Positions 4,101 to 31,379 of a stretch of DNA of 32,000 nucleotides are shown here, in pieces; position 1 is the first letter of the stretch; every line of letters begins with the position of its first letter. The stretch lies in the NCBI RefSeq assembly GCF_000020025.1, contig NC_010633.1:1-32000 (forward strand), in the 5' to 3' direction. A program made the translations under genes and the position numbers. Source of the stretch: Nostoc punctiforme PCC 73102. GTDB lineage: Bacteria > Cyanobacteriota > Cyanobacteriia > Cyanobacteriales > Nostocaceae. A model generated the notes under the pieces. The model was not told the origin of the DNA and did no database searches. It saw only the letters and a list, made by a program, of their open reading frames with translations.

Positions 4101-7100
4101 ATCACTGAATTGTTTAAGTAAAAATTCTTTAGTGAGTTTAAAGTCAGTCAGTCCAATAGGTAAGTCATAACTCCAACTAGCGGGAGCGACACCCGCTTGA
4201 TAGATTACTTGTTGCGTAAGATCAACTCGGTCAATTGCCCAGTTGTTATCTAGTTGAACATCAAAACTTTCACCGTCTGGACGGATAACATGGGAGAAAA
4301 ATAGTCGTGACTTTAAATCATTGCCAAAGATATCTAAGCGTTTGGTTTCTACTGGTGCAGCAATGCTGTCGGAAACTGGAATAAGACTGACATCTTCGGT
4401 TTCAAATTTAATTAAGCTGACACCAAATAATAGGTCTTTTGTTCCATCTTTTTTCGTTACTTCGATAGCATTTTGATAGGTCTGAGAACGCCGAATCGCA
4501 TAATCTGCTCGACTTCCTTCTGTGTAAACCACCACATCACCAAAGATAGGCCCAGTAGGTCCAGTATAAGTATCATTCGCTCTGGATACAGCTACTGATT
4601 TGCCTGTATATAAATCATCCCCTGGCTGATAGGCTGTCTGACCAAATGCGTTAATACCATTGACAATGAAGTTATTTCCTCCTCCGGGATAGAAGAATTC
4701 GTAAAATTCTCCAAATCCCGTTATAACATCATCTCCATCTCCTAATAAATGAGTTAATAGAGGTGCATATTGAGCAAAAGTAGAGAGTTGGAAAGGATTT
4801 GTTAAGGCTGGAACAGCAGATCCTAGATTTTGTAGTTCGCTTTCTGTAAAATTCTTAACTACATCTGCTCGATCTGAGTAATTAACTTCATGGATATAAG
4901 AATTCCTAAAAAGTCTATAGAATTTAGAGTTAAAATCATCTGTACCAGTAAAGTCAATTTTGGATAAATCAAGTTTATTAATATTAGACACATCTAAATT
5001 TATGAGGAAAGGAACATCAAAAAGTCGCCTCCCCTCAAAAACTATCTCATCAAACAAATCTTCAAATTTCCCTAGTGTATTAATATGCCCCAATGTTGTT
5101 CTACTATTTATGTCATCTTTTAAGACAACTTTTCTGAAGGCATCTTTTTGGCTTTCTAACCTTCCTCTAACTAAGATTCCATCATCAATGGAACTTGATT
5201 CCTTGCTCTTAACTGCGGTATTATTGCCAATAATATAGGTTTGTTTAATCGGACTTTGAAGAGAATAACGTTTGTCGCTGCCAATCTCCTTGCGTACTTC
5301 TTCACCAGCTAAATCCACCGAAGCAAGAGTTAAATGGTTCAGGGGTGTACCAGAGTCTAATGTATCCAACAATGTCAATGCTGAATTTGGAGAGCGATAG
5401 AGAATTTGCCCTCCTGTAACTTCAATTTCAACCTCTGTAAGGTCAAAAACTCCAAATTTATCCTTAAGTGCTTGTTTCTCTAAAACAAAGGTTAGATCAT
5501 TGATGCGATATGACTCAAATCCTTGAACAATATTTTCACTGAGTGAGATAGTATTATCGCCACCACTGAGAATGCCATATATTTTTCCACCATATTTATA
5601 AGGAGTTAAATTGAGATTTACTGATCCTCCTAAATCAACAATGCGGAGAACGTGATCAGAATTACTTAAATCACCTTTTATGTAGTTGTAGTTAGAACCA
5701 ACTGATGAGATATAAGCATTATAAGTACCCGGTGCATTGCTAAAACTAACTGTGTTAGAGCCACCTCCTAAGTCAATAATGTCTTGATATATTAAAGATT
5801 GAGATCCTACTGGTAAGATTGTTTTTACACCACCAAAATAAGGGTTATACCAAGTCACACCACCATTGCTGATATTTGTATTACCTTCTTTGACATTTGG
5901 CAGTAAGTTAACATAATCGTTCCCACCACCCAAAACGTAAGGCGCTGTTCTGTTAAATCCAATGGGTACTCCCAGATAATCTGAACCCTGCGTTCCGGTT
6001 AAATTACCAGTTGGTAACTTGGTGGCATATATGTCTGGACGCAAACCACCAAGAAAGGTAAATGGTGCTTGATTACCAAAGTCATCAAGGGTATCAAATA
6101 GTAATGAAATACCTTGTGTACTTGCTTGTAGTTCATCAGAAAAGAGTATTGCTTCAACATTACTAAGTTCAGTAACGTTTTCTATATTTGATGGATTACT
6201 CAGGTCATTACTAAGTTGTAGGATGAACTTGTTACCTTGGGCTGTCTTTTTACTAAAAAGAGAAAGTGTGTTATCTCCTTGCAAATAGGCATCTGAATCT
6301 AGAATAAAGACATCATCAGCAAGGGGAGAAAATCTTGCTAGTCCATCTCCGAACGCTCCATAGTAATCAGTTGCTCTAGTATCTGATGGATGATCTCCGC
6401 CATCTATATTATCCCGCCCCGGGCTTAACTGACCTGCATCCGCTCCACCCTTAAAATAAACAAGCTCACTGCGATTAGTACTTCTGTCGTCGCTACCAGG
6501 ATAATAGTCAGGCCCGTCAGTTCCTTCATAAATCTTAACTCCTAAATCATTTGCTATTGAAGCAATATCTAAAGAAAAGCTTGGAAGGTTAAGTAAGTCA
6601 GAGTTAAAGCCTAGCTTGGCAGCAGACTCTTTTAAATTATAAATTTTTTCGTCTTTGAATAATGTAAACTCAGGTAGATTAATTGATGGAATAGGTATGG
6701 TTGTTAAATTCCCTGAAAATATATCAGGTTTCTTAAAAGGAATCAAATCAAAATCATAGGTACCTAATCCTATCCCATCTTGTTCCTTTTGACCCTTGCC
6801 TGTTGTTAAACTCAATGTAGGTTTTATATATGAGTTAATATCAACAAAAATATTGGGTTTAAGGACTGGTAAAAAGTCAATTTTATCATTTTGATTTTTA
6901 TCTAATCCGGTAAAATATTTAACACTTTCAGTATTGGTTAAAGAACCATAAGAATCAACGGGCTGATTCAAATCTGAAAGATTAAAGTCTTTCCAGCCTC
7001 CATTTACATCTTCAATCTGAATTTGAGGTTGTAAGCCTTTAATGCCTAATTTAATTTCATATACAACCTCAAGAGAGGTTTTTAAATTGACATCGAAGAG

Positions 7101-8615
7101 AGCTAGATCATACTGATAACCAAAACTTTTTCCAAATAAATCATACTTATCACCACCTTTAAGAGTAGTAGGAATTGGTAGTTTCGGGCCAATAAAACCA
7201 TCTATATCAAAAGTGAAATCAAGTAATTTAAAACTATCCTTAACTTGGTAAGTTAAGGAGTTAGCATCTGAATTAAGTAGTTTAAAATCGACTTTGCTAA
7301 AATCAGGCAACCCAAACCCCAGAGTAAAAAGATCACCTAATTTGATTGGATCTGGCTTTGAATTACCAATCTGAAACGTCTTTTTTCCAGTAATCCAGTC
7401 AACTACTTGAGTGGTTTTACGAGTATCAAACTTAATGAAGTCATGCTTGAAATTAGAAGATAAGTTAATTTTCGCATCAAAAGGTATAGATTTTGTGTTG
7501 ACCTTCTTCTTATAAGAAAATAACGATTCGATAATATCAACATATTCAGCATTAAAACTTCCATTAATGTATGCAGCAGCATTAGACTGAATCACTCCTG
7601 CAACATTGAGAAATAGGTAAGGAGAAATGTAATCAACAAAAGCTCCCCTTTGATCACGGTTTAACTGGAAGTTTAATTTACTGTTATTAATTCCTAACGA
7701 TGCGTCAGCAAACATGGGGATATTCCAGTTGACTCCACCCAAGTTGTAGCCTGCGTTAATTTGAAGTCCTGCTTTGAGTGTTGCAGGTTTAGACTTGTCT
7801 TTTGAGTTGGCAATTCCTAAAGATAAATCAGCATTTGCCCCCACAACGCCTAGATCAATTCCTGGAATTGGCAAATTGAAAAACTGTCGAAAAGATGTAT
7901 CTACACCAAGAACATCATTTTTGACCAAGTTGGAGCCAAAAATATCCTTAGTATTGAAACTTTTTTCATTTTCATTTGGTTTACCTAATAAATCGCCAAA
8001 TTTCCAATTTCCACCTAAAGAAGTTCCTATTCTTTGAGACCATAAAACTTGATCGGCGACTGCTTGTTCAATCTGAATAGTTTGCCCATCTAAGGTAATT
8101 AAGCTTGTATCGTCTTCACTGCGGATGATCTCTAATTGCTCAGGAGTAATGGTTTTATTCCAGACAAGCTCAGAAAAAATTTGCCCTTCATCTCCGGGTG
8201 TGTCATTGACATTGATTCTGGAGTCAACAAAATGTCCAAATTCTTCCAGTAAGACACGAGCGATCGCCCCCACATCTCCCTGATGATTTGTAATAAACTC
8301 TTGTGAGAGATAAATCTTATTCGTCGCCGCCGCAAAAGCCCCATTAGCCCCATTGATATCTGCTGCATGGCGAACCTCTATCTCAGGAAAATCACTGAAA
8401 TCATTTGCTGACCATGCCGTTCTCAATGAGTCAACATTAGCCCCCTCGCCAAAAGCAATCGCCATCTTTTGACCAAAATCAGGCTCACTGGCAAAATTCC
8501 CTAAGTATTCTTGTGCTAAAACTAGAGCTTCTTCTACGGGAGTTAACTGTGATGGGTCAAGGATTAAAGAAGACTTTACAATTAAATTTTTTCCAGGTAC
8601 GTGTGCATTTTTCAT
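1128..8615 (-). CDS. Giant (2495 aa) RTX/hemolysin-type Ca2+-binding repeat protein; probable type I secretion substrate, adhesin- or S-layer-like
   Basis: Uninterrupted 7.5-kb ORF. There are two blocks of GGxGxDxUx nonapeptides: aa ~1640-1740 ([38 protein letters not shown]) and the C-terminal region ([26 protein letters not shown]). No N-terminal signal peptide is obvious, and the C-terminal tail is non-repetitive, as in T1SS substrates. The N-terminal ~190 aa resemble a domain common in cyanobacterial RTX proteins ([21 protein letters not shown]...[10 protein letters not shown]). Confidence 0.9.
1495..2611. repeat. Two tandem 561-nt units inside the RTX gene (187-aa duplication)
   Basis: Offset of exactly 561 nt. 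Positions 1495-~1905 match 2056-~2466 with only a handful of mismatches (e.g. gtcGgtg/gtcCgtg, ttaGcc/ttaAcc). The rest of each unit is more diverged. The tracked antisense ORFs 1687..1875 and 2248..2436 are near-identical for the same reason. Confidence 0.9.
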
Positions 8616-8828: not shown

Positions 8829-11800
8829 ATGACGGTTGAAGAAGCGATCGCACTAGTCGAGCAAGTATTGGAACGGGGACGCTTAACAAAAGTTCAAGAG
8901 ATTGTCTTCCGTCAATCATGGGCAGGACAGACGTACTTAGAGATGGCTGTAGACTGCGATTACAACCACAGTCACATCAAAGACGTTGGCTCTGAATTAT
9001 GGCGATCGCTCTCTCAAGCTTTAGGAGAAAAAGTTACCAAAAATAACCTGCACGGAGTACTGAAGCGAATCGCACAGGGACAAAAGGACACAAATGCCTC
9101 CTCAACCTTAAACCTTCAACCCTTCACAAACTGGGGGGAAGCAATTGACGTTTCTCAATTTTATGGACGTACTACTGAATTAGAAACCCTCAGCCAATGG
9201 ATTGTGAGAGATCGCTGTCGTGTAGTAACACTGCTAGGTATGGGTGGCATGGGCAAAACCGCACTCTCAGTGAAGTTAGCAGAACAATTGCAGGGAGAAT
9301 TTGAATATGTCATTTGGCGATCGCTGCGGCACGCACCTTTTTTTCAAGACAAACTGACAGACTGCATTAAAATCCTTTCTCATCAGCAAGTTACCACATT
9401 GCCCTCTGACCCTCATGAGCAAATTACCTGTTTAATCGAGTACCTCCGCAAATCTCGATGCTTGTTGATTCTGGATAATTTCGACACATTATTGCAGCAA
9501 GGTAAACAGACAGGCTGTTACCGTGAGGGCTACGAATCCTATGGCGAACTCTTGTGGCGATTGGGAGAAACACAGCATCAAAGCTGTGTCCTGCTCACCA
9601 GCCGAGAAAAACCTGCTGAAATTGCTGCCTTAGAAGGTGATGGTTTGCCAGTTCGTACCCTGGCTTTATCAGGATTAGAAGTCGCTGATGGACAAACAAT
9701 TTTGACACTCAAGGGTTTATCAGGCGCTGAAGACGAAACCCGCCAATTGGTTGAGTGTTACCGTGGTAATCCACTAGCTTTGAAAATTGCTGCCACCTCA
9801 ATTCGGGACTTATATGAAGGCAATATCGCTCGTTTTTTAACTGATGGCACAACTGTATTTAAGGGTATTGGCAATCTCCTAGAGCAGCAATTTAAAAGAC
9901 TCTCCACCAAGGAGCAGCAAATCATGTACTGGCTAGCAATTAATCGTGAGCCAGTTGTAGCTGCCGTGTTACAAGAAGATATTGTGCCAGCAGTTTCAAG
10001 GGCAAATTTACTAGAAGCGTTGGAGTCTTTGAGTTGGCGTTCCTTAATAGAAAAAAGTTTCGGTGGCTTTACTCAGCAACCTGTAGTTATGGAATACATG
10101 ACAGACCAACTTATTGAACAGGTTTGTCAAGAAATAATAAATTTTGAGATTCGCTTATTAAATTTATACGCTCTCATCAAAGCTAATGCTAAAGATTATA
10201 TTAGAGAAAGTCAAACTCACGTTATTTTAGAATCTTTATTAATTGGGTTACAAAGTAGATTAAATAACCCAGGAGAAATTGAATTAAAAATTCAACAATT
10301 AATTTTAAGATTACAAAAAGAAATTCCCGCTCAACCTGGATATGTATGTGGGAATTTGATTAATTTACTGCGACATTTGAAAGTAGATTTTACCAATTAC
10401 GATTTTTCTAATTTAACAATTTGGCAAGCTGATTTCCAAGGCACAAATTTAAATAAAGTAAATTTCACAGGTGCAAATATTAAGAAATCAGTTTTTACAG
10501 AATATTTAGCTAGTAGCCTTTGTGTTAAATTCAGCCCTGACGGAAAATTTTTAGTTAGTACCGATGCAAATGATGGCATTCATTTATGGAATATTGAAGG
10601 TTTAGCAGCGATACATTTAACGACTCTACAAGGACATCAAGCTTGGGTTTGGGACGCTAAGTTTAGTCCGAATGGTAAAGTCTTAGCAACTTGTAGTGAT
10701 GATGGTGTCATTAAAATATGGAATATTAATACTGGGAAATGTCATCATACTTTACAAGATGATTCCAAGCGTAGTTGGTCGATAAGCTTCAGTCCAGATG
10801 GAAAAATACTAGCAAGCGGTAGTGGAGACCACACTGTTAAACTTTGGGATATCAATACTGGGCAATTGTTGAAAGTATTAAAGGGACATATAAATATTGT
10901 CCGTCCAGTTATTTTTAGTTCAGATGGAAAAATTATTGCTAGTGGAAGTGAAGACCAAACTATCAAGATTTGGGATGTTGATAGTGGTGAATATTTGCAG
11001 ACTTTAGAAGGACACTTGGCACAAGTTTGGTCAGTTTCTTTGAGTGAAGATGGGAAGATACTAGCAAGTGGGAGTGCTGATAAAACAGTAAAACTTTGGG
11101 ATGTGAGTACGGGGGAATGTCGAACAACTTTACAAGGAAATCAAATTGATGGTGTTTGGTCAGTTAGCTTTAGTCCTAGTGGTGAGAGTGTTGTAGTTGC
11201 AGGTGAAGTACCTGTAATCAGTTTGTGGGATATCAAAACTGGCGAATGTATTCAAACCTTTTTAGGACATATAGGCCGTGTTTGGTCAGTTGCTTTCAGC
11301 CCCAATGGTAAAACTTTAGCAAGTGCAAGTGAAGATCAGAGCGTTAAGTTATGGGATGTGACTACAGGAAGATGTTTAAAAACCTTACAAGGATACTCAA
11401 GTCGTGTTTGGTGTGTAGCTGTTAACGCCAATGGTCAGTTATTAGCTGCAAATACAAACAAAACACTAAGAATATGGGATATTTCCACAGCTAAATGCAT
11501 ACATACTTTACATGGGCATACTCGTGAAATCTGTGGGACTGTTTTTAGTTCTCATGAAACAATCCTTGCTAGTGCTGGTGCAGATGGGACAATTCGCCTT
11601 TGGGATACGATTACAGGTAAATGCTTAAGAACTTTACAGGTAAACGGGTGGATACTCTCACTTGCTATGAGTCCTCAAGGAAATGCTTTAGCCACTGCTA
11701 ATACAGATACTATGGCTAAGATTTGGGATATCAAAACTGGGGAATGTATCAAGACTTTAGAGGGACATACTGGTTGGGTATTTTCTGTTGCCTGGAGTCC

Positions 11801-12377
11801 AAATGGACAATTTCTGGCTACTAGCAGCGATCGCTGCATTAAGTTATGGGATGTCAAAACATGGCAATGTATCAAGACTTTAGAGGCACATTCCGGTTGG
11901 GTATATTCACTAGATTGGAGTCCAGACGGTCAAACGTTACTCAGCGGCAGTTTTGACCTCAGCTTGAAATTATGGGATATCAATACAGGAAACTGTCAGC
12001 AAACTTTGCACGGACACACAAAAATAGTGTTAGGTGCAAAGTTTCATCCCCAAGGCAACATTATTGCCAGTACAGGTCAAGATGGAACGATAAAACTTTG
12101 GAACAGCAATACAGGAGAATGCCTGAGAACACTCATAGGACATGCAGATTGGATTTGGGCTATTGCCTTTCACCCCAACGGGCAAACCCTTGCTAGTGGC
12201 AGTCAAGATGAGACAATTAAGCTGTGGGATGTCGAAACAGGGGAGTGTTTGCAAACTTTGCGATCGCCCCGCCCCTACGAAGATATGAATATTGCAGGCA
12301 TTACAGGGTTAACCGCAGCCCAAAAAGCGACTCTAAAAGCGCTCGGAGCAGTAGAATCAGTTGCTACAGACGGTTAA
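8829..12377 (+). CDS. STAND-class P-loop NTPase (NACHT/NB-ARC-like) with N-terminal HTH, pentapeptide repeats and 14 WD40 repeats
   Basis: Walker A is [12 protein letters not shown] (nt ~9236-9262) and Walker B is CLLILDNFD. The N-terminal ~85 aa look like a LuxR/sigma-region-4-type HTH ([22 protein letters not shown]...[12 protein letters not shown]). Pentapeptide run: [30 protein letters not shown]. Fourteen units follow, each ending (L/I)W(D/N)xxTG, which would give two 7-bladed propellers. Confidence 0.92.
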
Positions 12378-20325: not shown

Positions 20326-21642
20326 TCACTGTAGTTGCTTGAATTTATTATTTGCCGATAGCAATAACTCTTGAGCTTTTAAATAAACAGTTGTACCTTT
20401 TTCCACCTTTTCTAATTGGTTAATAATACTGTGTAACTGACTAATTACACGATTGCGCTCCAAATTTTTGGGGTCAGTGGGAATTGAAGCCATTAAGCTT
20501 TCTATTTCTTGTTGTGCTGTTGCCAAAGCCTGTACAGAATCTGCCTCAGCTTGTCGTCTTACTTTGACTTGACCCAAATTAGTCTCATAAGTTGCTAATA
20601 ACTTTTGTGCTTCTGCATAACCTGCCACATCTGACGCAGAAACTTCTTTTAACCGCTCAATGGCTTCTGACCATAAATTTTCTATTTGTTCCCATTCGGT
20701 GACTGTGTGCGGTGGATTTTGGCCAGATTTAGCAGCTTGCCAAGAAAATTGCTGCGCTGCGGTAATTAAAGCACTGACGTGTTCATTTCCCGCTGCTAAT
20801 CCCACAACTTCTTTAAAATCACGCTTGTAGGCATCTAGTTGATTTTGAGCAGTTCTTCCGGCTAAGGTTTGGCCAGGAATTTCTTCTAACTTATCCAGTG
20901 CTGAACGCCAAGCTGCGAACGCCGACTTTTTATCGGTTACTGTTGTAGCAATTTGATACTGCTGTTTTGCATTCAATAATGCTTGACTATTATCAGTGAG
21001 CAAGGTTTGAGCGTTTTTTTCCTGAAAAACCTTGGCTTCTAGTTGCCCTACTTGACGACGCGCTGCATTCAGACCGTAAACGCTGAACCGCCAGTCATAC
21101 CACCAATATTTGTATTCAGGCCAATCGTTAACCAACCCAACTGGCAAGTTATCCAAATGTGTTTTTGTCTGTTGCAGTTGCTGTTCACCCAACGCTAAAT
21201 CTGCTGCACTAGTGGGTTTTTCAATCAAGTATTCAGCTTGCTCAATTGATGCCAACGCCTGCCGATAGTGCTGTTCCATGCTCATGTAACTGGGTAGCAA
21301 CAAAAAAGGCGCATTTTGCACCACAGTCCGGCGAATTATTGAGTAAGGCAGATTCGCCACCCAAACCACACCTGCGGGAATGCCGATAAGTATTACTATC
21401 CATATCAACTTAGTACCTATACCTCTGTTGGCTTTGCTAGGTCTTTTTTGATGGGATGTACTGCTAATCTGCCCCTGTGCAGCTATTTCTTGTTCTAATT
21501 CAGCCAGAGTTTTTGATTTTGATGGTTTTGCTGGTTGCTTCAGCACTATAGGTTGTTGGCTGGTTACAGATGAATTTATCCCAGAAGCATTTTGAGAGTT
21601 ATTACGAGAAAATTTTTGAGTAATTTTGTGTAAAAAGGTCAT
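20326..21642 (-). CDS. Membrane-anchored helical / coiled-coil-like protein (438 aa)
   Basis: The N-terminal region is Ser/Gln-rich, followed by a single TM (LIWIVILIGIPAGVVWVANL) and a long Ala/Gln/Glu-rich helical region. Confidence 0.75.
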   Translation of the reverse strand: MTFLHKITQKFSRNNSQNASGINSSVTSQQPIVLKQPAKPSKSKTLAELEQEIAAQGQISSTSHQKRPSKANRGIGTKLIWIVILIGIPAGVVWVANLPYSIIRRTVVQNAPFLLLPSYMSMEQHYRQALASIEQAEYLIEKPTSAADLALGEQQLQQTKTHLDNLPVGLVNDWPEYKYWWYDWRFSVYGLNAARRQVGQLEAKVFQEKNAQTLLTDNSQALLNAKQQYQIATTVTDKKSAFAAWRSALDKLEEIPGQTLAGRTAQNQLDAYKRDFKEVVGLAAGNEHVSALITAAQQFSWQAAKSGQNPPHTVTEWEQIENLWSEAIERLKEVSASDVAGYAEAQKLLATYETNLGQVKVRRQAEADSVQALATAQQEIESLMASIPTDPKNLERNRVISQLHSIINQLEKVEKGTTVYLKAQELLLSANNKFKQLQ

Positions 21643-21759
21643 ATATAGATTCAGTGCTTAGTTTAGTATTCCCCAACTAAGCTCGAAATAAAAACAATAC
21701 GTGGCTTTTTACAAAAGCTCCAAGGCAGGATGCATCAGGAAGCTTCGTTGTGGCAGTCA

Positions 21760-22248
21760 TTATCGATAAACAGATATTGGGCTGGCATATTCAAGCAATC
21801 GTTCCCATCCCCAAACCCATGCAGTTTTTACTCTTATCTCTTTACCGTTGCTGAATTTGATAAATTCTCCAGCTCCGTCAAAAAATACATCAACAACCAA
21901 TTGATTCCGCACATCGCGTCCCCACATTTTTTCTGCGGCATTCCACCACCGTTGCCCAGGTGAAGAGAACATCTCCCTTTCTAAATATTCATCACGCCAT
22001 GCTTTAGGTTTCCAATTATCTTGTAACGCACGGATTAATAAAGCATTGGGGAAAATCTCTTTCTCATGTTCACTCAGCCACAGTGCATATTCAATTGCAC
22101 TTCGCAAGGCATCCTCTAAGTCTAAAGAACAACCTTCAAGTGCATCTTGAACTTCGGCATCTGCAAAATTAACACCGATAGTTAAGAGCGCTGGTTCGTA
22201 TTTTTTAAATACCTCGTACTCAACCGATTCCTTTTCCCAAAACCACAT
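21760..22248 (-). CDS. Hypothetical protein (162 aa, Trp-rich)
   Basis: ORF only; no motif recognised. Confidence 0.6.
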   Translation of the reverse strand: MWFWEKESVEYEVFKKYEPALLTIGVNFADAEVQDALEGCSLDLEDALRSAIEYALWLSEHEKEIFPNALLIRALQDNWKPKAWRDEYLEREMFSSPGQRWWNAAEKMWGRDVRNQLVVDVFFDGAGEFIKFSNGKEIRVKTAWVWGWERLLEYASPISVYR

Positions 22249-22343
22249 AGTATACCCCTAACTATGTTGAACTCCATTTATAGTAGATTAATCGTAATTG
22301 AAGAACTGGTAATTAAATCGCTACGCATTTTTAGAATCAGGAA

Positions 22344-22643
22344 ATGCCCCAAAAATCTCAGTCACGTTATCCAGAAAATTGGTCAGATATCGCTCTTGAT
22401 GTCAAACAATCTGTAGGGTGGCGTTGCTCTAAGTGTGGCTTACAGTGCATTCGCCCCGGTGATGATACGTCCGAACTTTCCCGTTCTCTTAGAACGGCGC
22501 TAACACTAACAGTACATCATAAAAATTTTCTGCCAGAAGATAATCGTCGAGAAAATTTATATGCGTTATGCACAGCTTGTCACCTCAGTTTTCATACGCG
22601 CCGCAGGGGAAATGTATCGCCAGGACAATTATCTTTATTTTGA
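22344..22643 (+). CDS. HNH endonuclease
   Basis: CSKCGLQC ... LTVHHKNFLPEDNRRENLYALCTACHLSFH gives the CxxC, HH..N..N and CxxCH..H pattern of the HNH fold. Confidence 0.85.
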   Translation: MPQKSQSRYPENWSDIALDVKQSVGWRCSKCGLQCIRPGDDTSELSRSLRTALTLTVHHKNFLPEDNRRENLYALCTACHLSFHTRRRGNVSPGQLSLF

Positions 22644-22750
22644 GCCAGCTTCTTATTGAACTAAGGTACTGCAAAAGCGCCACCAGCAGAATGAACTACC
22701 TTTATCTCTGATTCCTGGGCGGGAGCAAGAACCAAGTAAATTGAATAGTT

Positions 22751-23005
22751 TTATTGAATTTCCATTTCTGCCATAAGACATTGAAGCTCCCAGGTTAGCC
22801 CTTCAAAGTCAGGCATATTTTCCTCTCTATCACGCGAGTAAGCGCTTGGTTCTATGCCGATGACTTCAGTTCCCACACGCACATCTGCTACGTGATTCAT
22901 TCGACTGCACATCGGATACGCTTGTGTATCCCCTATTTTTTTGTAGGTGTCTTCACCGTTCGGAAAACAAAATAAATCGCCGCGCTGTAAATCTGAGAAT
23001 TTCAT
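22751..23005 (-). CDS. Hypothetical protein (84 aa)
   Basis: ORF only. Confidence 0.5.
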   Translation of the reverse strand: MKFSDLQRGDLFCFPNGEDTYKKIGDTQAYPMCSRMNHVADVRVGTEVIGIEPSAYSRDREENMPDFEGLTWELQCLMAEMEIQ

Positions 23006-23043
23006 ATTTCTAAAAGTTTTGTTATTTAGTTTGCTGGTTTTTA

Positions 23044-23457
23044 CTATTTTTGCACTTCATTAAGCAAATATTGATCAATCCGCTCCCTCATGTGGTTTAG
23101 AGCCGATTGAATATCTGAGAATGCTTGCCTTTCTTGTGATACCATTTCTGATTGCGCGGGTACATATAATTCAGCCCAGTAGCAGTACAAGTATGGATCA
23201 AACCACACATCAATGATGCAGTCTCTATACCAACCTCGTGAATAGTATTTATCGATCTGTTCTTTCATGTAAGCTACAGCCGATTGAATATCTGAGAATG
23301 GTTGCCTTTGTTGCATCAACATTCTATTGCGTACCGGGGCATATAATTCAGCCAGGTAACATCTGCGCCTGTCATCACGCCAAACATCAATACTACAGCC
23401 TTTGTATTTCTCGGAGTGCTTTAAATCCTCGGACAACAAATCAATCATGGTGAACAC
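23044..23457 (-). CDS. Hypothetical protein built from two tandem ~59-aa repeats
   Basis: CSIDVWRDDRRRCYLAELYAPVRNRMLMQQRQPFSDIQSAVAYMKEQIDKYY aligns with CIIDVWFDPYLYCYWAELYVPAQSEMVSQERQAFSDIQSALNHMRERIDQYL. At DNA level AGCCGATTGAATATCTGAGAATG recurs at ~23101 and ~23278. The start may be the fourth codon (ATG at 23448). Confidence 0.7.
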   Translation of the reverse strand: MFTMIDLLSEDLKHSEKYKGCSIDVWRDDRRRCYLAELYAPVRNRMLMQQRQPFSDIQSAVAYMKEQIDKYYSRGWYRDCIIDVWFDPYLYCYWAELYVPAQSEMVSQERQAFSDIQSALNHMRERIDQYLLNEVQK

Positions 23458-23597
23458 CGTTTTGCTTATGAATAGCGGTCTTGATACCTAAGAGCGTAAA
23501 AGTTTCTCGTTTCTTTGATTACAAGTTTTAGCATTATTTATTCAATTATCTAATAAACTTAGGCTAATTGGAAAGCTGATTTCTTATTGATACTTCT

Positions 23598-23741
23598 GCC
23601 GTGGTTGTCCGCGATGCCGTAACCACGCCGTAGGCTACGACCTATACAGGGTATGAATTGCCGTGATTGCTGCCGGATGCCGTAGACACCCATTAAAGCC
23701 CGTAAAACAGACCTGATTCTCACCACGGCATTACGGCATTA
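23598..23741. repeat. Cluster of TGCCGTA-type 7-mers (direct and inverted) immediately 3' of the FtsK-like ATPase gene
   Basis: GCCGT cores occur at 23598, 23616 (aTGCCGTAa), 23627 (cGCCGTAg), 23659 (tTGCCGTGa) and 23679 (aTGCCGTAg), with GCCCGTAA at ~23698. Inverted tandem copies are cACGGCATTACGGCATTAcc (23724-23741). GTGGTT(23601-23606)/AACCAC(23621-23626) form a small hairpin around one copy. Confidence 0.65.
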
Positions 23742-23744
23742 CCT

Positions 23745-25568
23745 TCACCAATCAGGCAGAGAGTAGCTATCATTCCCATCAGGATTTACCTGATCAGTCT
23801 TAACTAATTCAGCTAACCCATCAATTAATTCTTGCTCTGAATAACCAGATAACCTGTCTGCTTTCTTCAAATCGCGTAATGTTTTTGGGGTTTTCGACTT
23901 CACATTCTGGAAGTATTCATAAATCTTTTTAGCCACCTCAGATAATGGTTTGGGATGTATCTGGTGAGCCGGACTTAAATTAAATTCCAGGTCAAATACT
24001 CTATCTAAATATTCCTGCTCCGAAGCAATCGGCTTGACTTGATTAGATAATTGTGGCATTAATGCCACAACAAAACCCCCAACAGAAGCAATCATCACTG
24101 GGCGTAAGTTTTGATAGGAGACTGTTTTTACTGACAAGTATTTAGATTTAATTTGCTCCCGCTCTTGTTTACCTGGAATAATGTCACCTCTATTTAAAAT
24201 CAACTCCAGTACCCCATAAGATTCTTGTTCCCTTCCGTTCTTGATATATCTGTTACCTAGCAACAATAAATTGAGACAGAGACGAGTTTGAGCGTCCATC
24301 TTTTCAATGCCCAATGCTGCCAGATTAAAAGACTGTAGGGAAGCAATAAACTTAGTGTTAAACTCTCGACCAATCAGCAGAACATCAAGCAATTTACTCC
24401 CATAATTCCAATCAGAGTAAAGCTTGCTTAATGAGTCAGCAATTACTAGCCAATCATCCAGAATTAGAATCAATGGTGGTAAGGATTCGCGCTTTGATTC
24501 TGGTAGTTGCTTACGCTTTTTGTACGAGGTGTAAAAGCGGTCAATGACTTCTTTAGCTAGGTCTGGGTTTTCCCCGTCAAAAACAATTACCCTTTCTTTC
24601 TCTCGCAAACCACAGAAACTATCATTCTTAGCACTAATTACCCAAATATCCGCGTTGGGGGAATCTGCAAGGATTTTCTCAATCAAATAATTGAGGGTTA
24701 CTGATTTACCGCTTCCCGGCGCGGCGACTAAAGCAGTGGAACTATCGGCTCTGGCTAGGGCTTGCAAAGTATTGAGGGCAAGAGCTTCTGATGGGTCAAG
24801 GCTAGTAGCAGTATTTTGTCCTAATGTCTGCTGTTGTTCCCCAGTAACTTTATCGTCACCCCTGGCGATATCCTGCATTGACTGCCCCGGTAATGCTGCG
24901 GCTGGTTGTCCAGTCGCCTGTTGCAGTTGCACCCGTGCTTCTGCCTCCGCCCTCAAACGTACCTGCTCTTGAAAGATGGCTAACTCTTGCGGTGTCATTT
25001 GTGACAATTGTGCTGCTCTTAGCCGTCGATTCTCTGACCATTGGTGAAACTCGTAGTCTAGTTGGGCGCTATATGCTTCCTTATGGAGCCTTAACCCGTA
25101 CCAAAGTTTAGAAATTAACCAATTGCTACGAATTTCTTCTTGAACAGAGGGCATTAGTTGCATTAATCGCCATTCCCTAGCTTTGGATAACCCATAAGCT
25201 CCACCAACCAATAGCACTGAAGCTAATCCCCACAAAGCCTTATCCGGGTTACTTGGTTCTATTATTCTTAAGCGGGTAGCTTTGGTAGGCAGGAAGTTAT
25301 CACGCTGAAACTCTGGGTTAGCTGGTGCATAAGAAGAGGCATAAAACTCCGATTCAGGCATTATGTAACGCTTGTTGGGAGTGCAGTACCTTTGCTGATT
25401 AACGGGTTTGGTGAGCGTTGAGGGGATGAAACAATATTCAACTAAACTAATCATCGTGCCAGTAAATGACTTTGCCCCACAAATTAACCCAATAGTTGCC
25501 AGCACCCCCACAGTAATATTGTTGGCTATTCCTGATCGTAAATAATCCTCAAACTGCTTACGTTTCAT
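23745..25568 (-). CDS. Membrane-anchored P-loop DNA-translocase-like ATPase (FtsK/SpoIIIE/TraB-like or T4 coupling-protein-like)
   Basis: N-terminal TM segments: ITVGVLATIGLICGA and ALWGLASVLLVGGAYGL. Walker A is LVAAPGSGKSVT and Walker B is PPLILILDDWLVIAD, followed by IGREFNTKFIASLQSF...RLCLNLLLLG (an FtsK/HerA-like arrangement). The C-terminal ~60 aa look like a winged helix (AKKIYEYFQNVKSKTPKTLRDLKKADRLSGYSEQELIDGLAELVK). I place the start at ATG 25568 because it overlaps the upstream stop (ATGA). The tracked 25637 start adds 23 poorly supported residues. Confidence 0.8.
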   Translation of the reverse strand: MKRKQFEDYLRSGIANNITVGVLATIGLICGAKSFTGTMISLVEYCFIPSTLTKPVNQQRYCTPNKRYIMPESEFYASSYAPANPEFQRDNFLPTKATRLRIIEPSNPDKALWGLASVLLVGGAYGLSKAREWRLMQLMPSVQEEIRSNWLISKLWYGLRLHKEAYSAQLDYEFHQWSENRRLRAAQLSQMTPQELAIFQEQVRLRAEAEARVQLQQATGQPAAALPGQSMQDIARGDDKVTGEQQQTLGQNTATSLDPSEALALNTLQALARADSSTALVAAPGSGKSVTLNYLIEKILADSPNADIWVISAKNDSFCGLREKERVIVFDGENPDLAKEVIDRFYTSYKKRKQLPESKRESLPPLILILDDWLVIADSLSKLYSDWNYGSKLLDVLLIGREFNTKFIASLQSFNLAALGIEKMDAQTRLCLNLLLLGNRYIKNGREQESYGVLELILNRGDIIPGKQEREQIKSKYLSVKTVSYQNLRPVMIASVGGFVVALMPQLSNQVKPIASEQEYLDRVFDLEFNLSPAHQIHPKPLSEVAKKIYEYFQNVKSKTPKTLRDLKKADRLSGYSEQELIDGLAELVKTDQVNPDGNDSYSLPDW

Positions 25569-26143
25569 TGGTTTGTCCCCCTCGCCATAGCTGCAAGCAA
25601 CAACACTCCCAATGCTGCCAACCCGATCATTAACCAAGGGGTATCAGTCTGGGGACTGGGCTTAACTTCGTACTGTCTTACTTCTGAATAGAACCTTGTC
25701 TTACCTGTCTTGGTCGCTCCTGACACAGCCCGATATTCATCAAACGCCACCCAAAGAGTTGCCCCTACGCTTGCAGTTTGGGCAGTCGCTACCAAAAAAT
25801 CTTTGTCAATGTGGATTTGTCCGTCGTAGTGAAGCTTGGTCAGGGTATTGGCGAAGAATAGCCCCAGTACAATGCTGCCCAATGTGCCAGAAGCCATTGC
25901 CCCAATTCCAAGAGTTGTGAGTAGGCTGACTCCAGCATTGGCGGTGAACACTCCCAAGAATGTAGCCAGTGCTTTGTTTAGCAGTTGTTTGTTACTGAAG
26001 ACATCACGAATGGATTGCTCTAACCGTTCGCCGTCTTCGCTCTCCGGGGTCGGTTTTTCTGAAGTAGTTTCACCCCAGAGCATTGGTGTGGACTGTTCAC
26101 TGGTGTTTTGGAACTGCGATAATAGGGAATCAATTTCATTCAT
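25565..26143 (-). CDS. Membrane protein (192 aa) translationally coupled to the ATPase
   Basis: Several TM segments: LATFLGVFTANAGVSLLTTLGIGAMASGTLGSIVLGLFFA, VGATLWVAF and WLMIGLAALGVLLLAAMA. I place the start at ATG 26143 (MNEIDSLL). The tracked extension to 26287 runs through a GC-rich inverted repeat. Confidence 0.7.
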   Translation of the reverse strand: MNEIDSLLSQFQNTSEQSTPMLWGETTSEKPTPESEDGERLEQSIRDVFSNKQLLNKALATFLGVFTANAGVSLLTTLGIGAMASGTLGSIVLGLFFANTLTKLHYDGQIHIDKDFLVATAQTASVGATLWVAFDEYRAVSGATKTGKTRFYSEVRQYEVKPSPQTDTPWLMIGLAALGVLLLAAMARGTNQ

Positions 26144-26357: not shown

Positions 26358-27029
26358 TTAGATGCCCATGAAGTTGCGAAACCACTGCCCTACTCGGCTA
26401 ATCCCAGCAGTGCGCGAGTAATTGGGCTTGGGTATGCGGTCGGTTTTCGCTTCACTGCCGTTTGTCCACAGTGCGCTAGTTACCGCAGTTTCATAAGCGC
26501 GATCTGCTGCGTCTTGGGCTTCTGGCACTTTGTTAGAAGCTTTGATTAAATCAGCCTCATATTTTGCGATCGCCATCAAGTCGGCAGTAGCCCCAGATAT
26601 CTGAATCAAGGATGAGCGTTGCGCGTGACGGGTGGCCTCGGCAGTGGTGGCGTTGACGTGTTCCGCCTGCATTTCGGTCATCTCGTTCTTAAAACGCTGT
26701 TCTCCTGTCTTACTGGTGTTGATAGCTTTCAGGGTTTGCGTACCGTGCTTCTGGGTGAGTTGCACCAGTTCTGCATAGGCTTGGTTTATATCGCCTGTGG
26801 TTTCAATGATTTTCCGGTATACCTCCAAAGCTTTAGGCAGATTAGCCTTAGCTGTGTCAGACAGTCGCGCCATATCTGCAATTTTGGTGATTACCGTTTG
26901 GTCGCCAAGGAGGGCTTTGTTGAAGTCCGATTCTGAGACATCAAACAGTCTGCCCATTGCTCCTAACGTACCGGGGGCATTGTTGTGAATATGGTTTTTG
27001 AGTTTTGCTGCTCCGTAATTTCTAGCCAT
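26358..27029 (-). CDS. Hypothetical helical protein (223 aa)
   Basis: AGGAGAATAA precedes the ATG and overlaps the stop of the upstream gene (8-nt gap). No motif recognised. Confidence 0.7.
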   Translation of the reverse strand: MARNYGAAKLKNHIHNNAPGTLGAMGRLFDVSESDFNKALLGDQTVITKIADMARLSDTAKANLPKALEVYRKIIETTGDINQAYAELVQLTQKHGTQTLKAINTSKTGEQRFKNEMTEMQAEHVNATTAEATRHAQRSSLIQISGATADLMAIAKYEADLIKASNKVPEAQDAADRAYETAVTSALWTNGSEAKTDRIPKPNYSRTAGISRVGQWFRNFMGI

Positions 27030-28016: not shown

Positions 28017-28237
28017 GATTTCTTTCCTTTTCTTTGAGCTTTGATTGGTGCGGTTGGCGCTTCTGGCTGACTCGGCTTCTGAAGTACATAGCTGATTGCA
28101 CCTGCACCCCCCACGGCTGCGGCGATGGTGAACATATTGTTTCTGCCAAGCTGCTGGACTCCGAAATAGCCAAAAGCGATCGCTGCTGCTGTTGCTCCAA
28201 TGCCTAAAAGCGTGTTCCTTAATGTGGTTCTGCTCAT
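28013..28237 (-). CDS. Small two-TM glycine-zipper membrane protein (74 aa)
   Basis: LLGIGATAAAIAFGYFGV and FTIAAAVGGAGAISYVL, followed by a basic tail KAQRKGKKS. ATGA overlaps occur at both ends (28234-28237 and 28013-28016). Confidence 0.7.
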   Translation of the reverse strand: MSRTTLRNTLLGIGATAAAIAFGYFGVQQLGRNNMFTIAAAVGGAGAISYVLQKPSQPEAPTAPIKAQRKGKKS

Positions 28238-28467
28238 GCTGCCCCCTTGAAATTAGTGACCATTGCGCTAAGTGCCGATTTATTGGGCTGTGTAGATTGC
28301 ACTGTTTCAACTTTGGGCGATGTTTGTACATTGCCGTGTTGAAAAATCAGCTTCTCTACACCTGCTGATAATGCTTGTGTTGGTGCATCTTGGGGTAAAT
28401 CAAAAATCTTGCACAATTCAATTACTGCTAGGTAGGAGATGGTTATACGCCGAGATTCGTAATTCAT
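28234..28467 (-). CDS. Small hypothetical protein (77 aa)
   Basis: It starts 3 nt after the stop of the actin-like gene, and its stop overlaps the next start. Confidence 0.6.
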   Translation of the reverse strand: MNYESRRITISYLAVIELCKIFDLPQDAPTQALSAGVEKLIFQHGNVQTSPKVETVQSTQPNKSALSAMVTNFKGAA

Positions 28468-28470
28468 TGA

Positions 28471-29586
28471 TTAAGCTCCTCTTGCAATTTGAGTTAATAG
28501 CTTCAACCCCAAAGCATTGATGAATTGGGGATTGTTCAAAATCACAAAACCTAAACCGGCTAGGTTTTGATCCACCACTGGCAGCGAAACACCCCCACCC
28601 CAGGCGACAAGGTATTTAGCGCGGTCTAGATAATTGCCAGCAGTCACAAAGTTGGCGAATTTCTCAATCCTGTTACTCCACCATTCATCCAAACTTTGGC
28701 TGTACTCGGTTTCAAACTTCTTACCTGTGAGGTGGTTGCCTCCATAAGTGAAAGTCCCTTCAAGAATTCCCTGGTTAACGAGGCTGGGCGAGTGTTTCAC
28801 ATCCTTGGACAACAGACTTACTCGGTCGTTTCGCTTGTCGAGAGATCCGGCAATCATGCTGTGCAGTTCACCGGCTCCACCTTCAATCAAGTGACGGTCA
28901 ATCACTGCACCACTGCCGTTGAACACGGTAATCAACCAAGTTGATGAACCGATATCGAGTGCGATCGCTAATTCTGAAGGGTCAAGAATTAGGGACGCTT
29001 CACCGAATAAACAATGGGCAATGCTGCCAAATCCTTCGGGGTAAATGCCTGCAACCGCGATGTCAACTGTCTTGGTGACAATGGAACGAGTTACAGGATG
29101 CAGATGCTCAAAGGTGTGAGTTCCTGAAACTCTGCGTTTAATCTCTTGTCCCCAGCGTTCGGGGTTATGGTTGCTCAAACTAATTGAAAGCTTGAACCCA
29201 TCGGGAATATTCAGAACTGCCAAATCTGCAAGGATGCTTTCTAGTGCTAGTTCTGCTTTTTTGGCTTTGTCCTCGTGTAACAGGGTGTGGTCACTTTGGG
29301 CTAGAGCCGCACTGCCCCAAAAGAATTGAACGTCTTTTAAGTCAAGACGCGAACCTTCTACATACCGAACCCATGCCCCATCTTTTGAGATGGTTTCGTG
29401 GTGCATGATGTTGCGGTTGCGAACAAGTGAATATGCGGCAGGCATCATGAGCGAAAAATCACCGATGATTGCCTTGCCATAACCTGCACCTGCGTCTTTA
29501 CCTCCAGTGAGGTCAGTTAGCCCGGATTTGGCTAACAAGTCTGCCTGAACTAGCCAATTTTTGGCATTGGAATATATAGCTGTCAT
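28471..29586 (-). CDS. Actin-fold (ParM/Alp-like) ATPase
   Basis: Phosphate-1 DAGAGYGK (DxGxxxxK), phosphate-2 IALDIGSSTWLITVF, GGAGELHSMIA, and adenosine motif LVAWGGGVSLP. 371 aa. Confidence 0.75.
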   Translation of the reverse strand: MTAIYSNAKNWLVQADLLAKSGLTDLTGGKDAGAGYGKAIIGDFSLMMPAAYSLVRNRNIMHHETISKDGAWVRYVEGSRLDLKDVQFFWGSAALAQSDHTLLHEDKAKKAELALESILADLAVLNIPDGFKLSISLSNHNPERWGQEIKRRVSGTHTFEHLHPVTRSIVTKTVDIAVAGIYPEGFGSIAHCLFGEASLILDPSELAIALDIGSSTWLITVFNGSGAVIDRHLIEGGAGELHSMIAGSLDKRNDRVSLLSKDVKHSPSLVNQGILEGTFTYGGNHLTGKKFETEYSQSLDEWWSNRIEKFANFVTAGNYLDRAKYLVAWGGGVSLPVVDQNLAGLGFVILNNPQFINALGLKLLTQIARGA

Positions 29587-29746: not shown

Positions 29747-29764
29747 ATCACATCATGATGTGAT
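29747..29764. promoter_or_regulatory. Perfect 18-bp palindrome, candidate operator or centromere site in the divergent promoter region
   Basis: ATCACATCATGATGTGAT is its own reverse complement. Extra TGTGAT / ATCA half-sites lie nearby (29784-29789 and 29741-29746). The site is between the actin-like gene (-) and the RHH gene (+). TTCTGGCTT occurs twice (29616-29624 and 29692-29700). Confidence 0.55.
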
Positions 29765-29807: not shown

Positions 29808-30017
29808 ATGATGTCAGGTGAGCAAACGAGTTCTGACTTAATGAGCAAAAAGTTAAATGCAATTATTCCAGATGAAACTTGGGAGGCGCTAGAGCAAATT
29901 GCTAATGGAGAGATGAGGACTAAAAGCCAAATGGCAGCTATTCTGCTTGGTGAAGCGATCGCGGCTAGACGTGCTAAAAAATCAGAATCTCAGAAGCAGG
30001 AAAAACCAGAGGCATGA
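29808..30017 (+). CDS. Ribbon-helix-helix (CopG/ParR/Arc-like) DNA-binding protein
   Basis: KKLNAIIPDETWEALEQIANGEMRTKSQMAAILLGEAIAARR gives the beta-strand, helix, helix pattern of RHH proteins, followed by a basic tail. I prefer the ATG at 29808 over the tracked TTG at 29727, because the tracked start would put the palindrome inside the CDS. Confidence 0.65.
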   Translation: MMSGEQTSSDLMSKKLNAIIPDETWEALEQIANGEMRTKSQMAAILLGEAIAARRAKKSESQKQEKPEA

Positions 30018-31139: not shown

Positions 31140-31379
31140 GTGTCACAAAAAGAACTATCTCATACCTCAGCTACGAACAAGCTGCTATTCGCAACTAAAG
31201 CTAATCCCTGTCCTCACTGCGGTAAACCAGACTGGTGCTACTCAATAGGAGAATTTACAGTTTGTGATCGCGATCGCTTTTATCAGCCTAACTATGCACT
31301 GGCTCAACCGGAACAATCGCCAACTTATGTATTAAGCAATAGTCAAAAATTAAATAATGTTCAAGGAGGTATCGCGTAA
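31140..31379 (+). CDS. Small Zn-ribbon protein (79 aa), primase-N-terminus-like
   Basis: GTG start, 8 nt after GGAGGA (31126-31131). The motif CPHCGKPDWCYSIGEFTVCDR is a CxxC...C...C ribbon. The stop overlaps the next ATG (TAATG). Confidence 0.55.
   Translation: MSQKELSHTSATNKLLFATKANPCPHCGKPDWCYSIGEFTVCDRDRFYQPNYALAQPEQSPTYVLSNSQKLNNVQGGIA

Follow-up and report, generated by a model that had tools for sequence, protein, structure and literature searches.

The 32,000-nucleotide (nt) stretch of Nostoc punctiforme PCC 73102 DNA analyzed here, hereafter the window (contig NC_010633.1, positions 1 to 32,000), carries a dense array of short repeats based on the heptamer TGCCGT(A/G), which is located directly behind the gene of a membrane-anchored P-loop ATPase of 607 residues. 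The array is real and under selection, and comparisons with related plasmid loci indicate that it is very probably the docking site of the ATPase's own C-terminal DNA-binding domain. In the TraB/clt system of Streptomyces, the C-terminus of TraB recognizes 8-base-pair (bp) direct repeats in the clt locus and the hexamer pumps the plasmid (PMC4447253). From these comparisons and by analogy with this system, we consider it probable that the Nostoc array is a cognate, cis-acting locus at which a membrane DNA motor is loaded onto its own plasmid.

Cyanobacterial conjugation and plasmid inheritance are almost uncharacterized (PMC4027160), and no description of this ATPase family or of its repeats was found in the searchable literature. 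The protein family, the host lineage and an unusually modular specificity cassette are new here, and the kind of system, a membrane DNA motor with a cognate repeat locus in cis, is a known one.

The repeat array and its conservation

The stop codon of the ATPase gene, TGA, occupies positions 23747-23745 of the minus strand and is followed, in gene sense, by aggtaATGCCGTAATGCCGTgg. The array therefore starts 4-6 nt beyond the stop codon, and all of it, two copies of TGCCGT(A/G) just after the stop and six copies in the opposite orientation, lies within 23597-23740. The two proximal copies abut each other at ~23724..23740, spanning 6-22 nt past the stop codon (plus strand, ACGGCATTACGGCATT at 23725-23740; gene sense, ATGCCGTAATGCCGTG), and a gap of ~40 nt separates them from the six distal, reverse-complement copies. 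In gene sense, distal repeats 1-3 (23659..23684) read TACGGCA (23678-84), TCCGGCA (degenerate, 23671-77) and CACGGCA (23659-65), and distal repeats 4-6 (23597..23632) read TACGGCG (degenerate, 23626-32), TACGGCA (23615-21) and CACGGCA (23597-603). On the plus strand these are exact TGCCGTR matches starting at 23597, 23615, 23659 and 23678 and the one-mismatch copies CGCCGTA (23626-23632) and TGCCGGA (23671-23677); the array of the window is thus slightly eroded, two of its six distal cores carrying one mismatch. The original prediction had described five to six direct heptamers and two inverted tandem copies beginning 4 nt beyond the ATPase stop, and its account of the array holds, with coordinates that agree with the sequence to within 1 nt.

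Six of the 11 exact TGCCGTR matches of the window are found in the 142-nt array, and dinucleotide-preserving shuffles of the whole window gave 3.3 ± 1.6 matches, with none of 100 shuffles reaching 11. A further heptamer, GCCCGTA near 23698, was considered as a seventh repeat and dismissed, as it is not conserved in relatives. The five matches outside the array (1152, 1269, 9962, 27138 and 28332) all lie on the plus strand, a bias which is not significant (~p = 0.06) and has no counterpart in a strand skew of TGCCGTR on plasmid pNFSY01. The array region contains no intrinsic terminator (0 terminator-like sites, scored as a GC-rich hairpin with a T-run), it has no Rfam match at E <= 1 and its RNA folding energy is ordinary (z = -1.16); a function as terminator, one of the outcomes named in the original prediction as refuting it, or as RNA element was rejected on these grounds.

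For the comparative analysis, ~85 loci with relatives of the ATPase were gathered from PLSDB plasmids, GTDB genomes and metagenome contigs and labelled with L-numbers. The TGCCGT class was counted over 52 relatives which are at least 51% identical, have the same C-terminal tail and offer readable downstream sequence, and the array is present at essentially fixed offsets in all 52. TGCCGT occurs both at +6 and at +14 after the stop codon in 48 of them, and ACGGCA follows at about +61, +68, +80, +113, +124 and +142; elsewhere in these loci the density of the hexamer is 0.2-0.6 per kb. Over 55 relatives of this class the six-base cores are conserved to at least 90%; among 54 unique aligned sequences this holds for the ACGGCA cores, against 40-70% for the bases that flank them. 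On pCC7120gamma, motif, orientation and spacing are kept although protein identity falls to 52% and the spacers cannot be aligned. As the cores persist while their flanks drift, selection acts on the repeats themselves. The array is the sole cluster of its motif on pNFSY01, on a Tolypothrix 29-kb plasmid and in the first 100 kb of the 102-kb pCC7120gamma; outside the cluster the motif occurs on these three scanned plasmids at chance frequency and with no clear skew.

Relatives at 27-47% identity have no TGCCGT, and the layout is kept. Commonly, two to three copies stand right after the stop codon and are followed by a ~40-nt gap and by 5-10 reverse-complement copies, sometimes with one or two final copies in the first orientation. 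Each distant subfamily has a 6-7-mer of its own, and at least a dozen motifs exist overall, including AGACACC (L057, L059, pCC7120delta), AGACAG (L061, L064, L083), TGCAGAA (L063, L068, L086), TGTTCCTG (L065), CCTCACC (L069, L070), GGTCAC(G)/TGACC (L071, L073), ATCCAAC (L072, L074-L078, L081, L082), CCCCACA (L079), CTACAGC (L080), TGGGGTC (L084) and GTCCCGA (Tolypothrix 29-kb plasmid). Repeats behind orthologous ATPase genes, for which the original prediction had suggested looking, are thus found with the same heptamer in all 52 close relatives with readable downstream sequence, and with the same layout in distant ones. Such a constant layout with changing motifs is the pattern expected of a diversifying protein-DNA recognition pair. 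Some loci do not fit neatly: in L071 and L073 the blocks of the two orientations are about the same size, and L056 has only 2 + 2 copies. The array of L066 (GGAACA/TGTTCC, L066:4600-4780) overlaps the start of the preceding membrane-protein gene, and four tandem copies of TTGCGAA stand before it.

A central spacer element separates distal repeats 3 and 4 (23633..23655, in a spacer of ~25 nt; gene sense, CATACCCTGTATAGGTCGTAGCC) and is 70-90% conserved within the TGCCGT class. In the window it contains CATACCCTGTATAGG, which resembles ccTTGTACAGCA at the same place in arrays with other heptamers (L057, L061, L064, L071, L091). At this position 6 of 24 arrays match the pattern T[AG]TA[CT]AG, against ~0.9 expected, and a de novo search for a common spacer element returned only a partly conserved TGTACAGCA-like element in these 6/24 arrays. 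The element could be a bend site, a host-factor site or a nick site, and it may resemble a nic sequence of the RP4 type.

The motif follows the C-terminal domain of the ATPase

The family is modular: a membrane/coiled-coil module at the N-terminus is followed by the P-loop core and by a C-terminal domain of ~65 residues. Core identity, tail identity and motif were compared pairwise among 20 representatives, and a common motif was seen in 0 of the 28 pairs whose cores are at least 55% and whose tails are at most 30% identical. Thus, L068 and L069 are 96% identical in the core and 9% in the tail and have GCAGAA and CTCACC, respectively, and L056 and L057, with 89% core identity, have TTCGTAA and AGACACC. 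Conversely, all pairs with unrelated cores (8-32%) and similar tails have the same motif or motifs one base apart, as illustrated by L057 and pCC7120delta (L091; core 8%, tail 94%, both AGACACC), by L065 and L066 (core 32%, tail 31%, both GGAACA) and by L057 and L083 (core 30%, tail 71%, AGACAC versus AGACAG, one base apart). The 671-residue protein of L090 (78-kb Tolypothrix plasmid) is similar to that of the window in the C-terminal 66 residues alone, at 47% identity, and its gene is followed by a TGCCGT/ACGGCA array, with TGCCTTGTTGCCGTA directly after the stop and then ~ten CACGGCA/AAGGCA copies. Proteins with exchanged N-termini (L044, L042, L045) retain TGCCGT, and arrays of this kind are lacking where the protein stops short of the tail (L092, L093) or has another C-terminus (L060).

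The other products of the operon do not follow the motif in this way. Identity of the protein p223 reaches 71-83% where the motif is another one, whereas p223 is undetectable in same-motif loci, and it is therefore not the specificity determinant. The presence of the multi-transmembrane protein p192TM goes with the N-terminal module rather than with the motif, as it is 61-68% identical in L056, L057 and L083, which have other motifs, and undetectable in same-motif loci. Beside a GTCCCGA array, p147 still shows 79% identity. As the similarity of p147, p223 and p192TM is not aligned with the motif, these proteins were rejected as the source of specificity. Arrays also occur without ParM, and L060 encodes a ParM of 81% identity and lacks an array of this kind; a ParM/ParR centromere was rejected for the same lack of alignment between ParM similarity and motif. 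The response regulator encoded downstream is ~90% conserved beside TGCCGT, GACAGA and AGACACC arrays, its gene is absent in gamma-type loci and it is reduced to a frameshifted stub in the window, and on this basis an operator of the response regulator was likewise discarded.

The segment coding for the tail and the array behave as a single cassette of ~350 bp. In the TGCCGT-class locus L005 an apparent fossil of such a cassette (L005:9900-10080) is located downstream of the response-regulator gene and consists of the last ~30 codons of an L061-type tail with the AGACAG array still behind them. By these comparisons, it is highly likely that the array is the cognate partner of the ATPase tail in a protein-DNA pairing. 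The specific protein-DNA pair put forward in the original prediction gains support here, as the identity of the heptamer is tied to the tail across several independent domain swaps.

Architecture of the ATPase

The ATPase gene (23745..25568, minus strand; start codon set after the call of the Prokaryotic Genome Annotation Pipeline (PGAP) in the 90%-identical pNPM5 gene) encodes a Walker A motif, APGSGKS, and a Walker B motif, LILILDDW. After Walker B, GREFN...LQSFN resembles what we take to be the GRxxG...TQRP signature of FtsK/HerA ATPases. In the AlphaFold2 model (mean predicted local distance difference test, pLDDT, 75.9), the N-terminal module (~residues 1-220; 24909..25568, minus strand) is composed of a putative transmembrane helix over a hydrophobic stretch, a small beta-rich loop with two cysteines, a second hydrophobic, putatively transmembrane helix and long coiled-coil helices, which suggests the membrane topology of the protein. 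The cysteines, C47 and C63, are invariant in a 14-sequence alignment (A1) and not in one of 28 sequences (A2). A disordered linker precedes the RecA-type core (~residues 256-505; 24054..24803, minus strand), which is modelled with pLDDT ~85-93 and whose best PDB folds in Foldseek are EccC, EssC, the FtsK motor and TcpA (E 1e-5 to 2e-4, 250-320 aligned columns).

The C-terminal domain (~residues 544-607, LSEVAKKIYEYFQNVKSKTPKTLRDLKKADRLSGYSEQELIDGLAELVKTDQVNPDGNDSYSLPDW; 23748..23939, minus strand) is modelled as helix, helix, helix and beta-hairpin over the last ~65 residues. The Foldseek matches of the tail modelled by itself are Zalpha, the RPA32 winged helix, Fur, MarR and TubR, with target-normalized TM-scores up to 0.86, and the tail of one relative reached 21.6 bits against Pfam HTH_IclR, for which the cut-off is 22. 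The models thus show a core which is FtsK-like in fold and a tail which is a winged helix, in agreement with the tail of ~60 residues resembling a winged helix-turn-helix that had been anticipated from the sequence.

Sequence searches of the ATPase against Pfam, PHROGs, NCBIfam, PADLOC and PDB returned P-loop-level matches only, and the coupling-protein models T4SS-DNA_transf, TraG-D_C and TrwB_AAD_bind matched neither the window protein nor seven relatives. Public annotation names the family proteins 'hypothetical' or generic P-loop NTPase, and PGAP calls some of them 'type IV secretory system conjugative DNA transfer family protein'. The family is small, its profile finding ~411 clusters at 50% identity among 1.84 billion representatives. 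In further loci, which retain the upstream p223 and p192TM genes, an N-terminal module of 66-73% identity is joined to another P-loop core, one of HerA/AAA_10-like type (L091, pCC7120delta 21364-23091; P0076-P0089); the protein is thus built from three independently exchangeable modules.

Proposed mechanism and comparison with known systems

We propose that each C-terminal winged helix of a presumably hexameric ATPase of the FtsK/HerA type would bind one heptamer, so that about six equally oriented copies could assemble or load the motor on double-stranded plasmid DNA beside its own gene. The two inverted proximal copies and the central spacer element may shape or orient this complex, and the motor would then move or hold the plasmid at the membrane or septum. 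Sites placed right after the codons of the binding domain would favor action in cis on the encoding plasmid, and adjacency would also keep reader and site together in recombination. Direct binding, one winged helix per repeat and hexamer formation are presumed; loading and translocation are plausible. As the process served by DNA translocation we favor intercellular transfer or spread over segregation, and p192TM is the probable membrane partner of the N-terminal module.

The closest parallel is TraB/clt of pSVH1, pIJ101 and pJV1, which likewise combines a membrane-associated FtsK-type ATPase bearing a C-terminal winged helix with a plasmid-specific, repeated short motif at a single cis locus that lies at the 3' end of the ATPase gene or behind it (PMC4447253). 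An ATPase followed by its own repeat cluster is an arrangement described so far only for this system. There are also differences. The Nostoc ATPase has no detectable sequence homology to TraB or to Pfam FtsK_SpoIIIE, its N-terminal module consists of two transmembrane helices, a periplasmic loop and a coiled coil, and it comes from a filamentous, Gram-negative cyanobacterium; its repeats have a length of 6-7 bp and are arranged as 2-3 inverted copies, a gap and 5-10 direct copies with a central spacer element, and no KorA/TraR or Spd genes were recognized here. The original positional analogy to traB-clt is therefore supported in layout, fold and winged helix, a membrane-anchored ATPase of FtsK/EccC/TcpA fold ending in a winged helix with an array after its stop codon, and it does not extend to sequence homology. 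The Nostoc system may work like TraB/clt and is not to be filed as a TraB homologue.

Further parallels exist with the gamma domains of FtsK and SpoIIIE, in which the C-terminal winged helix of a hexameric membrane DNA pump reads a short oriented motif, by which loading and direction are determined. These motifs, the FtsK orienting polar sequences (KOPS) and the SpoIIIE recognition sequences (SRS), are dispersed and strand-skewed along the chromosome, whereas each plasmid here has one dense cluster; a dispersed polarity of the KOPS kind was looked for and not seen in the window or on the scanned plasmids. TcpA of pCW3 and type IV coupling proteins (T4CPs) of the VirD4/TrwB type share N-terminal transmembrane helices, a nucleotide-binding domain and plasmid carriage with the ATPase, and TcpA is a top fold match. 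However, T4CPs work with a type IV secretion system (T4SS) and a relaxase and are not known to have a sequence-specific winged helix or a cognate array, whereas the present family occurs on plasmids without an annotated T4SS and also beside a complete T4SS with its own T4CP.

The sites of plasmid centromeres (ParR-parC, TubR-tubC, ParG) are plasmid-specific short-repeat arrays at one locus, in two blocks, and TubR is a winged-helix protein. Here, in contrast, the predicted binder is a domain of a membrane ATPase and not a free adaptor, and the array tracks this domain and not ParM. In addition, the array is located ~5 kb downstream of parM, at the far end of the operon, and not upstream as in ParMRC, where the repeats are bound by the ParR encoded after parM. 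A further parallel is cosB of phage lambda, where several sites of the winged-helix protein gpNu1, interrupted by a bend site, serve to recruit a DNA-translocating ATPase; in contrast, no capsid or terminase genes are present here. A phage packaging site is not supported, as the ATPase has no match in a phage genome collection and, in IMG/VR, matches in four plasmid-like contigs only; of these four contigs with core relatives, two have no winged helix and none has an adjacent array.

Several observations weigh against a TraB-like loading site. The operon often begins with ParM, which hints at maintenance rather than transfer, and some plasmids carry MobC and a relaxase, a possible link to the conjugation of single-stranded DNA. 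The Foldseek E-values are modest (1e-5), and KaiC and RecA also match, behind EccC, EssC, FtsK and TcpA; there is no significant sequence match to FtsK_SpoIIIE (PF01580), TraB or any Pfam or NCBIfam family, and PDB searches stayed below threshold. Copy number varies from 4 to 10 among the arrays, and a strict rule of six repeats per hexamer is therefore not supported. The array of L066 lies ~700 nt upstream of the ATPase gene and not after it, and L067, L094 and L095 have the winged helix and no adjacent array in the DNA available. Finally, the winged-helix segment and the array are contiguous, and part of their co-inheritance could be linkage; a binder encoded elsewhere, however, would be uncoupled from the array by each swap.

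Beyond the loading site itself, we tentatively entertain, by analogy, a T4SS- and relaxase-independent, TraB-like machine in filamentous cyanobacteria which would pump double-stranded DNA between filaments or between cells within a filament. Such a machine might be addressed by the swappable cassette of winged helix and heptamer array.

Alternative explanations

Since the predicted reader of the array is part of a membrane-anchored protein with an FtsK-like modelled fold, the array could also serve segregation or tethering, the bound winged helix anchoring the plasmid or the motor pumping it from the closing septum in the manner of SpoIIIE/FtsK, alongside ParM. In many loci the operon indeed begins with ParM/StbA and a divergent 'copy number control' gene of the ribbon-helix-helix type, the single repeat cluster per plasmid resembles a centromere, and TubR is among the fold matches of the tail. 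However, ParM is absent from the array loci L089 and L083-L086, its similarity is not aligned with the motif, many of these plasmids also carry ParA/ParB, and known centromere binders are small adaptor proteins and not domains of membrane ATPases. The co-residence of same-class array plasmids in one strain, for which a centromere would predict partition incompatibility, was dropped as an argument against a centromere, being weak because ParM is common to these plasmids too. On balance we regard a segregation site as unlikely. Less still speaks for the ATPase being a T4CP for the conjugation of single-stranded DNA, with a T4SS in cis or in trans and with the array as an address tag that recruits the plasmid or relaxosome, which we judge quite improbable. 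The PGAP name of some members, the combination of two transmembrane helices with a nucleotide-binding domain, TcpA among the top fold matches and MobC with a MOBP relaxase on small plasmids would all fit such a role. Yet no T4CP model of Pfam or NCBIfam matches, the 28-29-kb plasmids have no annotated VirB4 or T4SS, and pCC7120gamma has a complete T4SS adjoining this operon with its own T4CP, VirB10, VirB4-like protein and MobF. Moreover, the array is not beside mobC or the relaxase gene, where the motif does not recur, and no T4CP is known to carry a sequence-specific winged helix.

A purely regulatory role, in which the array-bound winged helix only controls transcription as an autoregulatory operator or roadblock, for instance against read-through into the downstream response-regulator gene, would draw on the position of the array between the ATPase stop codon and the promoter-like region of the next gene, on the response-regulator gene that follows in many loci, and on the array of L066, which overlaps the start of the gene preceding the ATPase. 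In many loci, however, the downstream gene is different or missing, and in the window it is a frameshifted remnant beside an intact array. As an operator of 8-12 sites, distributed over 140 bp where an operon ends, would also be unusual, and the membrane ATPase would be left unexplained, this role is very unlikely. It is scarcely credible, finally, that the repeats are iterons or an origin for Rep, or sites of a factor encoded elsewhere, with the adjacency of the ATPase being incidental. Short repeats in both orientations and an AT-rich flank do resemble origins, but plasmids of different replicon types (rep_cluster_776 with MOBF versus the small CyRepA1 type) carry the same motif together with the same winged helix, and near-identical backbones differ in the motif each time they differ in the winged helix. 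Iterons are 17-22 bp long, and the irregularly spaced heptamers are unlike them.

Implications

If the motor is indeed loaded on the array, the TraB/clt principle would extend beyond mycelial actinomycetes, having arisen or spread in another multicellular lineage. The array of ~150 bp and the domain of ~65 residues would then form a compact, portable cis/trans pair, which could be used to mobilize, tether or track plasmids in Nostoc/Anabaena genetics, and the many natural swaps would provide a data set on how a small winged helix changes a 7-bp specificity. Should the pumping of double-stranded DNA prove correct, this would be the first such system outside Actinobacteria, with a dozen or more winged-helix/heptamer specificities. 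If segregation were the function instead, a membrane ATPase with its own centromere-binding domain would represent an undescribed partition design.

The replicon and operon context

The window is plasmid-like DNA of Nostoc type, and in megablast and tblastn searches segments of 80-93% identity came only from plasmids of Nostoc, Tolypothrix and related Nostocales. The minus-strand operon leads from a ParM/StbA-like gene (28471-29586) through genes of small and membrane proteins to the ATPase gene (23745-25568). It includes p223, the gene of a helical protein of 223 residues (26358..27029, minus strand), and p192TM, the gene of a 192-residue protein with several transmembrane segments (25565..26143, minus strand), whose stop codon overlaps the ATPase start. 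A 77-residue open reading frame (ORF) after parM (28234-28467) could be ParR. Divergently from parM, a CopG-like ribbon-helix-helix gene (29839-30017, plus strand; Pfam RHH_5) is found, whose counterpart in pCC7120gamma is annotated 'copy number control protein', and the control region common to both genes contains the perfect palindrome ATCACATCATGATGTGAT at 29747-29764.

Downstream of the array, the frameshifted stub of the NarL/LuxR-type response-regulator gene (MLKLVIKETRNFYALRYQDRYS*) lies at 23466-23534 on the minus strand; the intact gene in relatives encodes 223 residues. Similarity to all related plasmids ends at ~23471, which indicates a rearrangement breakpoint just downstream of the array.

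A short ORF at 31140-31379 (plus strand) encodes a zinc-finger-like motif, CPHCGKPDWC, and may be the start of the plasmid rep gene; relatives have a replication gene of the PriCT-2/primase type (CyRepA-like) at this place. Further away, the segment 12546-16376 codes for a ParA-like ATPase, a small ORF, a DUF4365 protein, another ORF and an Xer-like tyrosine recombinase, and the Tolypothrix 29-kb plasmid has this block too, with its genes similarly ordered (L089:21650-25862). Two large cargo genes encode an RTX calcium-binding repeat protein of 2495 residues (1128-8615, minus strand) and a WD40-repeat protein of 1182 residues (8829-12377, plus strand).

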